64,000 nucleotides of DNA from Escherichia coli. GTDB taxonomy: Bacteria > Pseudomonadota > Gammaproteobacteria > Enterobacterales > Enterobacteriaceae. This document shows, one piece after another, positions 13,104 to 36,518 of the stretch. The first letter of the stretch is position 1; every line of letters begins with the position of its first letter. Made by a program: the position numbers and the translations under genes. Under the pieces are notes generated by a model. It had not been told where the DNA came from. It ran no database searches and saw only the letters and a program-made list of their open reading frames with translations. The stretch lies in the NCBI RefSeq assembly GCF_044324875.1, contig NZ_CP172185.1. One strand, written 5' to 3'.

Positions 13104-13823
13104 ATGGGGCGTAAAGGACTACTTGCTATTGTATTGTTGAGCCTGTTTATCGCCATGATTTTTCAATTTTTCTGGCCTGCCCCACACGATGAACACGTTT
13201 TCCTGCCAGTTGAAAAACCTGTCGCACCGTCTTTAAAAATCATTCATCCTGGTGACCAGTTATTTATCCGCATTCTGAAAGCGGAAGATAAGCTGGAACT
13301 GTGGGCAAGCACCAACAACAAGCCTTACGAACTCTATAAAACCTGGACTATATGCGCGTGGTCTGGTGGCTTAGGGCCAAAACACAAACAGGGGGATGGT
13401 AAAAGCCCGGAAGGTTTTTATGCCACCAACAAAGAGTTGCTTAACCCAAACAGCCGCTATCATCTGGCATTTAATATTGGTTACCCGAATGCTTACGATC
13501 GGGCAAACGGCTACACCGGTGATTTCATTATGGTTCACGGAAACTGCGTTTCGGCGGGCTGCTATGCCATGACCGATGCTGGTATTGAAGAGATTTATCA
13601 ACTGGTGGCGCAGGCGCTGAATAGCGGGCAGAAGAGCGTGCCGGTGCATATCTTCCCGTTTGCGATGGACGAAGAAAATATGCGCCAGGCGCAGGTATGG
13701 CCGGAATATAATTTCTGGCGTATGTTGAAGCCCGGCTATGATTACTTTGAAAAAAATCGCCGATTGCCAACCATCACCGTTGAAAACCGGCGTTATAAAA
13801 TCAGCCCAACAACTCTTCCTTAA
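13104..13823 (+). CDS. YafK/DpaA-like L,D-transpeptidase-fold (YkuD) protein with N-terminal signal/anchor (239 aa)
   Basis: N-terminal hydrophobic segment; strong similarity to my recollection of E. coli YafK (SGGLGPK, GDxKSPEGFY, [14 protein letters not shown], [15 protein letters not shown] with conserved His/Cys, GYDYFE). Confidence 0.75.
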
Positions 13824-14808
13824 CATCCATCGCCAGTTCAAACGAATGCAGGCGCGCCTGGTGATCGAAAATCTGCCCGTTAACCATAATCTCATCGGCG
13901 TCGGTTTCGCGCAGGATCGACTGCAAGCCGTGACGCACTTTCGCTTTATCACCCACCAGCGACATACTCAGCGCCTGCTGCACGCCATACTGCTCGGACG
14001 GTGACCAGAACTGATCCATATTTTGAATCGGCGGCGGCAGTTGCCCGGTTTCGCCACGGCGCAGCTTCACAAAGGCTTGCTGCATTGAGGTAAACAGAAA
14101 TTCAGCGTCGCGGTTGCTGTCGGCGGCGATAATATTGATGCACACCATCGCATACGGTTTTTCCAGCCGTGCCGACGGTTTGAAGTTGCTGCGATAAAGA
14201 TGCAGCGCCTGGAACAACATATCCGGCGCGAAGTGTGAGGCAAACGCAAACGGCAGACCAAGCTGCGCCGCCAATTGCGCGCTGTAAAGGCTGGAGCCTA
14301 ACAACCACACGGGGATTTTCTCGCCATAGCCTGGTACCGGGCGCACATGCGGATTGGGATCGCGGGCGTCAAACCAGTCCACCAGCTCCGCGACATCGCG
14401 GGGAAAATTATCAATATCGCCGCTCATATGACGACGTAGAGCCATCATGGTTCGCTGGTCACTACCCGGAGCACGACCCAGCCCCAAATCGATTCGCCCC
14501 GGATAGAGCGTATTAAGCGTGCCGAACTGTTCGGCGATCACCAATGGTGAGTGATTAGGCAACATCACGCCGCCAGACCCCAGATGCAGCGTAGTGGTAT
14601 TCGCCGCCAGATAGCCAATCAAAACTGATGTTGCAGCACTGGCAATGCCGGTCATATTGTGGTGTTCCGCCAGCCAGTAGCGATGATAGCCGCGCTTTTC
14701 AGCCAGACGGGCGAGGTCGAGAGAGTGGGAGAACGCTTCTCGCGCTGAAGAACCTTCGGGAATGGGGGCCAGATCGAGTAGCGAAAACGCAATGGTTTTA
14801 TCAGTCAT
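13801..14808 (-). CDS. yhbW: Luciferase-like (LLM-class) monooxygenase YhbW (335 aa)
   Basis: Translation matches YhbW; stop overlaps the 3-prime end of the preceding + strand ORF. Confidence 0.93.
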
Positions 14809-14811
14809 AAC

Positions 14812-14881
14812 AGCTCACTTTGTTACCGATTAATCTTTAATACTGCATTAAAGAGTAGTTAAAGTTGTTAACAAAGTGAGC
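14812..14881. promoter_or_regulatory. Nested inverted repeats in the ubiV-yhbW spacer
   Basis: Perfect 14-bp arms (agctcactttgtta / taacaaagtgagct) separated by about 42 bp, with an inner ctttaat...attaaag palindrome. Confidence 0.4.
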
Positions 14882-14888
14882 TATTTAC

Positions 14889-15767
14889 TTACGCTTGCAG
14901 CTCCAGCCCGGCCAGCCGACGCCAGTAGCCGTTACAATCGCTGTTTGCCGTCAACGGCAGTGGCGCAGCGCCATTTTCATTGGCGCGGAAGGCGTCGAGT
15001 ATCGCGAAAGTGTCAGTACCCTGCGGTGACAGGCGGACCACATCAACCAGCCCCTGCATGGATGCCAGCTCGTTACCGAGGTTGTAAACGTAGCCGCTCA
15101 TGGTCTGAATGCCGTTGAGTACAAACACTTGTTGGTTTTCCTGCGACAGCACGTTGCGCCCGTTCGGATACTTAATGCAGCAGGTTTCGCACTCATCTTT
15201 CGGGCGGTCTTCCGAACGCGCGGTAAAGCAGCGGGCGGAGTAGGCCAGCGGCAGATGACCGTAGCTCAGGACTTCCACTTCAAACTGGTTGCGAATGCCC
15301 AGCTCATCGCACTGATTAAGCAGATTCACCAGCCAGTCGCGGGAAAGCTCCACCGGCATACACCAGCGCATCATGCCCTGTTTGAGCAATATTTTCAGTG
15401 TCACCGCGTTGTAGCAGTTCAGCGCGTGCCCGGCGACGAACGGCAGTTTGCGTTCAGCGCACATATTCACCACGCCGAGATCGCTGGCTTCAATCAGAAA
15501 CTCACCGTTCTCAACATAGCGTTTCAGTTCGCCCAGTTCAGAGGATGCCTGCACCAGCGCCAGCGTGGAGAGCACAATCTGCTTACCACTTCCGGCGAGT
15601 GATTTTGCCATCTCCAGCCAGTCGCCAACTTTGGTTGCCCGGCGCTTGCTGCATACCGCTTCACCAAGATAAATCACGTCGGCGCTGCTGGCGGCGGCCT
15701 GCTGATAAAATTCTTCCAGCGTCTCTTTTGGCCAGTACCACAGCACTGGCCCTAAGGAATATTTCAT
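14889..15767 (-). CDS. ubiV: O2-independent ubiquinone biosynthesis protein UbiV (U32 peptidase family, 292 aa)
   Basis: Translation MKYSLGPVLWYWPKE... matches YhbV/UbiV; start chosen at internal ATG to give canonical length. Confidence 0.9.
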   Translation of the reverse strand: MKYSLGPVLWYWPKETLEEFYQQAAASSADVIYLGEAVCSKRRATKVGDWLEMAKSLAGSGKQIVLSTLALVQASSELGELKRYVENGEFLIEASDLGVVNMCAERKLPFVAGHALNCYNAVTLKILLKQGMMRWCMPVELSRDWLVNLLNQCDELGIRNQFEVEVLSYGHLPLAYSARCFTARSEDRPKDECETCCIKYPNGRNVLSQENQQVFVLNGIQTMSGYVYNLGNELASMQGLVDVVRLSPQGTDTFAILDAFRANENGAAPLPLTANSDCNGYWRRLAGLELQA

Positions 15768-36270: not shown

Positions 36271-36518
36271 TTTCCTCTCCAGTTCAGATTACTGCGATAT
36301 TAATCTTTCGTTTTGTTTCAGTTGATACTGCGCCATGGTGAGATAAAAATAAAACGAAAGATAATAGTTTTCTGATCTGATTCACAAAAGAAACATAATG
36401 AAAGCCACTGAAACGAGAGTAGCTTGCGCCAATGGGTAAGGTGGGCTTGCATTTGCTTAATAGAAAGGCGTTAATAGGCAAAACGAAATGAAACGAAAGT
36501 TTTACGAAAGGACTTACT
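36271..36518. promoter_or_regulatory. Divergent kbaZ/agaR control region with repeated AgaR-operator-like motifs
   Basis: Multiple copies of (a)aacgaaag / ctttcgttt-type repeats (aaaataaaacgaaag, atgaaacgaaag, tacgaaag), typical of DeoR-type AgaR operators. Confidence 0.55.

Follow-up and report, generated by a model that had tools for sequence, protein, structure and literature searches.

The 64,000-nucleotide stretch of Escherichia coli DNA analysed here (assembly GCF_044324875.1, contig NZ_CP172185.1; hereafter the window) contains, between the genes ubiV and yhbW, a spacer of 80 bases (14809-14888) that carries a perfect inverted repeat with a long loop. This inverted repeat is real, it is conserved, and it goes beyond what chance would produce. 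The spacer that contains it is the control region of yhbW, in which the upstream edge of the promoter is complementary to the ribosome-binding site, and its two arms are probably two different functional elements that have been kept complementary to each other. The reading favoured here, with a confidence that falls a little short of even, is that the resulting hairpin would block the translation of yhbW only on RNA that reads in from the upstream ubiUV operon. Occlusion of the ribosome site specific to read-through RNA, taken broadly enough to include a variant in which translation of the two genes is coupled, may be called moderately probable.

The genes are arranged on the minus strand in the order ubiU-ubiV-spacer-yhbW, all of them co-directional, as established from their open reading frames (ORFs) and from NCBIfam equivalogs, and the RefSeq annotation of identical E. 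coli DNA agrees with the three assignments. The initial annotation of this DNA had identified both flanking genes correctly, leaving out their strand, and had placed the element both at the end of ubiUV and in the control region of yhbW. That double position holds, given that the ubiV-proximal arm (arm A) lies 6 nt past the ubiV stop codon and the yhbW-proximal arm (arm B) is the ribosome site of yhbW (Table 1). In the gene sense, the spacer and its borders read ...GCG TAA gtaaat AGCTCACTTTGTTA acaactttaactactCTTTAATgcagtATTAAAGattaatcgg TAACAAAGTGAGCT gtt ATG act gat, while the region 14809-14888 on the plus strand reads cat-aac-AGCTCACTTTGTTA-ccgattaat-CTTTAAT-actgc-ATTAAAG-agtagttaaagttgt-TAACAAAGTGAGCT-atttac-tta. 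The sequence GUGAG within arm B is the sole Shine-Dalgarno-like sequence of the spacer. In K-12 MG1655 the identical sequence occupies 3303368-3303447, where no feature is annotated.

A repeat search of the window bore out the perfect 14-bp inverted repeat that had been described: the outer arms, which on the plus strand are AGCTCACTTTGTTA at 14812-14825 and TAACAAAGTGAGCT at 14869-14882, are complementary at 14 of 14 positions and lie 43 nt apart, and they can be extended to 14809-14825 / 14869-14885, with 16 of 17 positions complementary (94%). The earlier account of what they enclose stands in part, since the stretch between them (43 nt, given before as about 42 bp) does carry the 7-bp palindrome CTTTAAT/ATTAAAG at 14835-14841 / 14847-14853 (14831-14841 / 14847-14857 in the repeat search), but this palindrome in fact measures 19 bp. 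Inspected by eye across its centre, it has a 9-1-9 form, CTTTAATGC-A-GTATTAAAG, with a single G/T mismatch. Folding of both strands, suggested at the time as a check, gives a stable structure on each: -28.8 kcal/mol on the strand of the genes, the minus strand (z = -4.3; none of 200 shuffles was equally stable), and -27.2 kcal/mol on the plus strand (z = -3.1).

Perfect 14-mer inverted repeats spaced by at most 200 nt have the outer arms as their sole instance in the window. The chance expectation for such a repeat is 0.07 per window, with at least one occurring in 4% of 100 first-order Markov simulations. No second copy of the arm is present in the window at up to two mismatches. When exact seeds of 12 nt are considered, the window holds two inverted repeats in all, the ubiV-yhbW repeat included; the other one, at 36303-36318 / 36347-36362 (ATCTTTCGTTTTGTTT / AAATAAAACGAAAGAT), is 16 nt long, 94% complementary, and has its arms 28 nt apart.

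For comparison across Enterobacterales, 41 distinct orthologous spacers were assembled from a genome scan (at least 12 Enterobacterales loci), from exact-protein look-ups (Salmonella, Cronobacter, Franconibacter, Buttiauxella, Atlantibacter, Entomohabitans, Enterobacter, Providencia, Pluralibacter and Tenebrionibacter) and from a metagenome pattern scan conditioned on TTGTTAAC...TGCAGTATTA; Klebsiella pneumoniae was added later, from a chromosome filed in a plasmid collection. Two K. pneumoniae records in PLSDB, CP125156.1 (5.37 Mb, 'plasmid unnamed2') and NZ_CP129771.1 (692 kb), carry chromosomal ubiU-ubiV-yhbW DNA, and the former at least looks like a chromosome filed as a plasmid. Within E. 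coli, a sensitive blastn search found the spacer element in single copy in 5423 of 5426 complete genomes, with at least 95% identity in all but one, and this single location per genome excludes a dispersed repeat of the repetitive extragenic palindromic (REP) or bacterial interspersed mosaic element (BIME), enterobacterial repetitive intergenic consensus (ERIC) or miniature inverted-repeat transposable element (MITE) type.

Across genera, Escherichia, Salmonella, Citrobacter, Superficieibacter, the Enterobacter cloacae group, K. pneumoniae, Atlantibacter and Buttiauxella all have the same core stem, GCTCACTTTGT / ACAAAGTGAGC, and Pluralibacter has one difference, which forms a G.U pair. Short loops, of 43-44 nt, characterise the type of Escherichia, Salmonella, Citrobacter and Enterobacter; in Cronobacter, Franconibacter, Entomohabitans, Atlantibacter, K. 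pneumoniae and two Enterobacter species, the loop extends to 92-117 nt and carries a conserved structured insert. Both arms are present in the short-loop and long-loop forms alike, and their survival through this change of loop length fits pairing in RNA rather than a protein site that depends on spacing. The repeat as a whole is kept across Enterobacteriaceae, and the loss in related species that the initial annotation had allowed for was not seen in the core genera. At the edges of the distribution the two arms part company. The 15-mer that overlaps arm A, GCTCACTTTGTTAAC, is invariant in Escherichia, Salmonella, Citrobacter, Enterobacter, K. pneumoniae, Cronobacter, Atlantibacter and Pluralibacter; arm B (ACAAAGTGAG) is also kept in Providencia, in another genomic context, and in Brenneria and Erwinia, to which the ubiV-yhbW synteny extends, all three without a clear arm A. 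A separate hairpin follows directly after the ubiV stop codon in Brenneria (locus L012), Erwinia (L011) and Klebsiella sp. BIGb0407 (L010), where pairing between an upstream arm and the ribosome site is weak or absent; the Brenneria hairpin, ATGGGCAG...CTGCCCAT with a T-run after it, is a canonical terminator.

The insert in the long loops is an observation in its own right. In many genera, the leader of yhbW holds about 80 conserved nucleotides, placed between the TGCAGTATTAAA block and arm B; they consist of CAGCTTTYCYGGC, a variable GC-rich apical hairpin and then CYGGAAGAAGACCTTCAATCTGATGAC-NNN-GCTG, with a stem that changes from CTGG/CCAG to CCGG/CCGG between genera (loci L003 2395-2480, L008, L085 1395-1480, L086, L089, L088, L116, L155 and, in K. 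pneumoniae, L215 1500-1573). The insert has no Rfam match and occurs upstream of yhbW only, among the loci compared; judged by its sequence, it could be an undescribed structured leader.

The experimental literature indicates how yhbW is controlled. In K. pneumoniae, the gene is activated by RamA, as seen in an electrophoretic mobility shift assay (EMSA) and in a 6.9-fold effect on in vitro transcription (PMC4310594), and in Salmonella it shows a 3-fold drop on deletion of ramA (PMC3139621). In E. coli, YhbW is listed as a member of the SoxS regulon and rises 77-fold with vanillin, a rise that occurs even without soxS (PMC6561319). ubiU and ubiV are absent from the RamA and SoxS regulon lists that name yhbW; the gene is induced with the mar/sox/rob/RamA regulons without its neighbours and therefore has a promoter of its own. 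When the primers of the RamA binding and transcription assays are mapped on K. pneumoniae DNA (L215 1412-1431 and 1653-1672), they delimit a fragment of 261 bp (L215 1412-1672) that begins 33 nt before the end of ubiV, spans the spacer and takes in 83 nt of yhbW. The RamA-dependent promoter lies within this fragment, which includes both arms; the assay is not site-resolved and concerns K. pneumoniae only.

Within the spacer, arm A is a candidate for both a weak, forward-oriented marbox and the -35 element of a promoter dependent on MarA, SoxS, Rob or RamA. On a position weight matrix (PWM) built from 87 marboxes determined by chromatin immunoprecipitation sequencing (ChIP-seq; Table 1 of PMC10268841), the 15-mer scores 7.0 bits. 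No other site of the spacer scores as high; the value belongs to the top 0.11% in the window and, set against the 87 sites, stands at the 6th percentile. In most genera arm A keeps a score of 6.9; for the reverse complement of arm B the range is -11.7 to +10.0, the latter being the best match of the K. pneumoniae RamA fragment. Only arm A is conserved as a complete 15-mer resembling a protein site. The marbox-like site includes TTGTTA, and its centre falls at about -41, inside the -36 to -55 range of class II marboxes (PMC12052159), only if transcription starts where CAGTAT predicts (near 14834-14829; the value of about -41 is that for a start near 14832). In CAGTAT, the columns at -11 (A) and -7 (T) are invariant. 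The start of yhbW transcription would thus be placed inside the loop, and the gene's own mRNA would lack arm A. A mini-ORF in the same part of the loop (ATG CAG TAT TAA, Met-Gln-Tyr-stop; 14848-14837, minus strand) loses its ATG in Pluralibacter, Franconibacter and Buttiauxella, its length is not conserved, and it appears to be coincidental. As for arm A itself, the arm and its flank (14869-14878, minus strand) form a perfect 10-bp palindrome, TTGTTAACAA, which includes an HpaI site and is invariant in most genera.

The upstream limit of the promoter is marked by insertions. In 1412 of 5424 complete E. coli genomes (about 26%), an ERIC element of about 125 bp lies between the ubiV stop codon and arm A, at 14882/14883 (for example at L001 2625-2750 and L002 4070-4195). 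It contains GTGAATCCCCAGGAGCTTACATAAGTAAGTGACTGGGGTGAACG, which we take to match the ERIC1R and ERIC2 primer sequences, and its end lengthens the stem to 17 perfect pairs (CACAGCTCAC...). E. albertii has an ERIC plus further DNA in the same place, and a REP/BIME-like unit, GCCTGATAAGCGTAGCGCCATCAGGC, lies between the ubiV stop and arm A in Salmonella (L083/L084, about 1320-1425) and in the Citrobacter-like metagenome contigs L113, L138, L169, L192 and L200. This slot has the appearance of an insertion hot spot, and in all lineages with ERIC or REP insertions the stretch from arm A to the ATG is intact. Because the insertions abut arm A and leave that stretch untouched, the promoter most likely begins at arm A; a promoter confined to the stretch therefore cannot transcribe arm A. 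A different event is found in E. coli M19 (NZ_CP010221.1; L002 2833-4000), where insertion of an IS110-family transposase removes the 5' end of yhbW; the junction lies inside the yhbW-proximal arm near 14815, and the rest of the hairpin and the ERIC remain.

The favoured reading joins these elements as follows. The ubiUV operon is activated by FNR from microaerobiosis to anaerobiosis (PMC10470549), and a terminator scan predicted no intrinsic terminator between ubiV and yhbW. From the gene's own promoter, yhbW mRNA would begin in the loop, without arm A, and its ribosome site would be open. RNA driven by FNR from ubiUV would read through the spacer and contain both arms; it would fold at about -29 kcal/mol with the Shine-Dalgarno sequence buried, and YhbW would not be made from it. 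In the variant already mentioned, a ribosome terminating at the ubiV stop codon would melt the GCUCAC:GUGAGC pairing, so that yhbW could be coupled to ubiV translation instead. Partition-function calculations give a probability of about 1.0 that the Shine-Dalgarno sequence is paired to arm A in read-through RNA, and of 0.000-0.002 that it is unpaired, in 14 of 17 species; in loop-initiated RNA, it is unpaired with a probability of 0.2-0.7 in 13 of those 14 species, the value for Franconibacter being 0.03. In K. pneumoniae, for which only the minimum free energy structure was predicted, the same outer stem forms.

Another way of looking at the spacer is to consider that one sequence of 14 nt may be read twice: in DNA as an activator site and -35 element, and in RNA as an anti-Shine-Dalgarno sequence, only on transcripts derived from ubiUV, such that the promoter of origin decides whether translation takes place. 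We hold this to be possible, though clearly below an even chance, and we are equally tentative about regarding the dual reading as a chromosomal counterpart of the fold-back inhibition known from transposons, which would insulate an O2-/stress-related enzyme from an FNR-driven neighbour. As in fold-back inhibition, the 3' arm here covers the Shine-Dalgarno sequence, and the predicted hairpin is stable enough to close the ribosome site. Brenneria and Erwinia, in which a terminator-like hairpin follows ubiV and arm B is kept without a recognisable arm A, fit the idea of insulation, in two genera only.

The main argument that the pairing itself is selected is that a perfect complement of 13-14 nt between unrelated elements is very unlikely to arise or persist by chance. 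The substitutions seen in the arms are consistent with it. A-to-G changes opposite U occur in arm A in Franconibacter, Entomohabitans, Klebsiella sp. BIGb0407 and Tenebrionibacter, and in arm B in the Enterobacter clade, Atlantibacter, Pluralibacter and the K. pneumoniae / L116 type, and C-to-U changes opposite G occur in Cronobacter, Entomohabitans and Pluralibacter; most changes confined to one arm can still form G.U pairs when read on the gene-sense strand. One stem position passes from A:U to G.U to G:C, the last being fully compensated in Mangrovibacter. Over the 13-bp core, the sense strand has 93.7% of its cells paired, with 14 wobble cells, and the antisense strand 90.2%, with 4. The evidence for selection on pairing is, on these comparisons, suggestive.

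A number of observations weigh against this interpretation and have to be set beside it. RNAalifold applied to 22 close orthologues gives no covariation signal, as the stem never varies among them, and in the core genera the majority of arm positions show no variation at all, which makes them uninformative on pairing. The overall figure of 90.6% paired cells is reached by 47 of 500 shuffles, and the covariation score, which is not significant, by 102 of 500, with changes on both sides at only two pairs. The purine-rich composition of arm B makes A-to-G changes wobble-compatible by default, and the p value corrected for this opportunity is about 0.27. Pairing is degraded in Klebsiella sp. BIGb0407, in Tenebrionibacter and partly in Mangrovibacter, and conservation could act on each arm separately, on one because it is a promoter and on the other because it is a ribosome site. 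On the side of the promoter, the probability that an 80-bp region contains a 7-bit PWM match is about 17%. The 15-mer fits 11 of 14 positions of the degenerate consensus AYnGCACnnWnnRYYAAAY, and such three-mismatch matches occur at chance frequency (142 found, 136 expected), for which reason this consensus was dropped as evidence. The arm A site is absent from the published MarA screen and from the Salmonella ChIP-seq peaks. Neither a mapped yhbW start nor a ubiV-yhbW read-through transcript was found in the supplements of six studies (PMC12052159, PMC10268841, PMC7815308, PMC6131387, PMC11092163 and PMC6212723), and no ubiV or yhbW 3' end or RNase III cleavage was found in them either. In the favoured model, the start site, the read-through and the marbox are all inferred.

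One explanation to set against that model is that there is no role at the RNA level: arm A would be a DNA promoter element, arm B a ribosome site, and their complementarity a relic of an ancient inverted duplication or a frozen accident. The invariance of both arms in the core genera, where conservation cannot separate the models, leaves room for it, as do the non-significant covariation statistics, the conservation of arm B in the three genera without a clear arm A, and the uncompensated changes at distal arm B stem positions in Cronobacter, Entomohabitans, Mangrovibacter and Klebsiella sp. It is nonetheless rather unlikely: a complement of this length is expected 0.07 times per 64 kb, the A:U, G.U, G:C series and the wobble excess of the sense strand point to pairing, and a hairpin of -29 kcal/mol over the Shine-Dalgarno sequence must affect any RNA that has both arms. 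Translational coupling is another reading of the same hairpin, which would keep the yhbW site shut until a ribosome at the ubiV stop unwinds the base of the stem, so that YhbW would be made anaerobically in step with UbiV, in addition to its expression from a stress promoter. The geometry is suitable for such a mechanism. A ribosome covers and unwinds about 9 nt beyond the stop codon in its A site, and in 60 of 68 orthologous loci the distance between the ubiV stop and GCTC is 3-7 nt; moreover, it is the 5'-most part of arm A that pairs with the Shine-Dalgarno sequence, stop and start codons are brought close to each other by the hairpin, and the synteny of the two genes is conserved as far as Erwinia and Brenneria. 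The short distance may merely reflect a compact genome, however, and 100-210 nt of ERIC or REP sequence separate the stop from an intact hairpin in about 26% of E. coli, in Salmonella, in E. albertii and in some Citrobacter. Since these insertions are tolerated, coupling is at least dispensable, and as the main explanation we consider it unlikely.

The remaining two explanations look away from the ribosome site. The stable stem, which begins 6 nt past the ubiV stop, could be an element of the ubiUV 3' end, whether a terminator or pause site without a U-tract, a barrier to 3' exonucleases like that of REP, or an RNase III site. The outer stem of up to 17 bp, the quasi-palindromic nature of the whole spacer and the presence of REP and ERIC, known RNA stabilisers, in the same place in other lineages all agree with this. 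The initial annotation had proposed a ubiUV terminator and had remarked at the same time that the repeat differs from typical intrinsic terminators; the remark proved apt, and the canonical form of the proposal found no support. The scan gave 0 sites and no terminator-like match, 5 of the 14 stem positions are G/C (36%), the loop ranges from 43 nt in E. coli to 92-117 nt in other genera, and the 3' arm is followed by GUUAUGACUG (GUUAUGACUGAUAAAACC) and not by a U-tract. The supplementary tables of an aerobic E. coli Term-seq study (PMC7815308), which are possibly incomplete, list no entry for yhbW, yhbV or ubiV. A 3'-end element would also leave unexplained that in all genera the 3' arm serves as the ribosome site of yhbW, and it must be counted as distinctly improbable. 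Neither does the spacer belong to a catalogued RNA family, for the sole Rfam 15 match is a spurious mir-1285 hairpin (27 bits against a threshold of 56), and species with the long leader likewise give only a sub-threshold miRNA-like match.

Lastly, the palindromes could bind protein, either at the outer arms, if these are a pair of inverted marboxes or half-sites for one regulator, or at the inner 19-bp palindrome, if it is the operator of a putative dimeric repressor over the -10 region and start; the chance of this seems very small. The vanillin response without soxS leaves room for another regulator (PMC6561319). A dimeric regulator site, which had been suggested before, does not suit the outer arms, because the distance between them ranges from 43 to 117 nt with no loss of either arm; in addition, one-arm substitutions are tolerated, and only arm A is conserved beyond the paired core, as a 15-mer. 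MarA-family proteins bind as monomers to asymmetric sites, and two inverted marboxes are further excluded by the variable score of the reverse complement of arm B, though it is the top match in K. pneumoniae. The suggestion survives for the inner 19-bp element only, which is the one serious candidate of this kind: 8 of its 9 paired positions match, it is strongly conserved, and Cronobacter shows the compensated form TTCAT/ATGAA. Salmonella breaks it (TATGACAAG), the block is equally well explained as a -10 region, and we know of no E. coli operator motif that matches it.

Table 1. Features of the ubiV-yhbW region, with positions in the window.
Feature	Position	Strand	Remarks
ubiV CDS (coding sequence)	14889..15767	-	Final gene of ubiUV, an operon activated by FNR; any read-through RNA comes from here
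ubiV stop codon TAA	14889..14891	-	6 nt upstream of the 14-bp arm A (7 nt from the G of GCTC)
Polymorphic insertion point	14882..14883	.	ERIC (~125 bp) in ~26% of complete E. coli genomes
Upstream arm (arm A, ubiV-proximal) AGCTCACTTTGTTA	14869..14882	-	Exact complement of arm B; GCUCAC pairs with GUGAGC (anti-Shine-Dalgarno)
Marbox-like 15-mer GCTCACTTTGTTAAC, forward relative to yhbW	14867..14881	-	Candidate MarA/SoxS/Rob/RamA site of a class II promoter (inferred)
-35-like TTGTTA	14874-14869	-	Overlaps arm A and the marbox-like 15-mer
Inner 19-bp palindrome CTTTAATGC-A-GTATTAAAG	14835..14853	-	Most conserved block of the loop
-10 candidates TTTAAT; CAGTAT	14852-14847; 14845-14840	-	Inside the inner palindrome
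Predicted yhbW transcription start zone, in the loop	14829..14840	-	Predicted from the -10 candidates
Downstream arm (arm B, yhbW-proximal) TAACAAAGTGAGCT	14812..14825	-	yhbW ribosome-binding region
yhbW Shine-Dalgarno GUGAG	14818-14814	-	Inside arm B, 5 nt before AUG
yhbW start codon ATG	14806..14808	-	3 nt past the stem (GTT between); NF007802 equivalog, 733 bits
yhbW CDS	13801..14808	-	Luciferase-like monooxygenase (MsnO8-family LLM oxidoreductase)

If the favoured reading is true, the locus would offer a case, testable in E. coli K-12, of translation that depends on the promoter of origin: with no terminator present, a promoter element in its second role would cancel, at the RNA level, the effect of operon read-through into a downstream gene under different regulation. 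It would explain how ubiUV and yhbW can lie 80 bp apart without a terminator, why yhbW, among the most strongly induced mar/sox/rob targets, would be silent anaerobically, and why the locus accepts insertions of ERIC and REP outside the arm only. It would also mean that anaerobic yhbW mRNA detected by RNA sequencing may not reflect YhbW protein. Hairpins that sequester ribosome sites are already well known, and the advance would be a modest one.

Compared with known systems, the hairpin resembles intrinsic terminators and REP or ERIC hairpins in being a stable stem-loop just past a stop codon, between co-directional genes; it differs from them in its lack of a U-tract, its AT-rich stem, its very long loop and its single copy, and real ERIC or REP units adjoin it in some lineages. 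With the class II marbox promoters of micF, fumC and lpxC P2 (PMC12052159), the yhbW promoter would share a forward asymmetric site over the -35 element, a predicted centre at about -41 and a weak core promoter, and yhbW, like those genes, is an experimentally supported member of the regulon. In contrast to those promoters, GCTCACTTTGTTAAC departs from GCAnnWWnTGnnAAA at 3 of 10 positions and was missed by the published screen and by ChIP-seq.

Long-range hairpins are also known to couple translation in rpmI-rplT and in the coat and replicase genes of MS2, where, as here, the ribosome site of the downstream cistron is paired with sequence at the end of the upstream one and can be opened by the ribosome of that cistron. 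Unlike them, the yhbW locus tolerates 100-210 nt between stop codon and stem in many lineages, and yhbW would also have its own promoter inside the structure. A further close parallel is the fold-back inhibition of read-through transcripts, reportedly described for IS10/Tn10 by Davis, Simons and Kleckner in 1985 and for IS50/Tn5 by Schulz and Reznikoff in 1991. In these elements, the 5' arm lies upstream of the gene's own start, so that only RNA coming from outside forms the hairpin, and there is no translation from it. The ubiV-yhbW hairpin has the same layout, with a 3' arm that is the ribosome-binding site and a 5' arm upstream of the predicted own start. It differs in that it belongs to a chromosomal housekeeping or stress locus and not to a transposase gene, and its mechanism is a proposed one. 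It also differs in that its 5' arm appears to double as activator site and -35 element, and that the outside transcription would come from a defined and oppositely regulated operon, the FNR-driven ubiUV.

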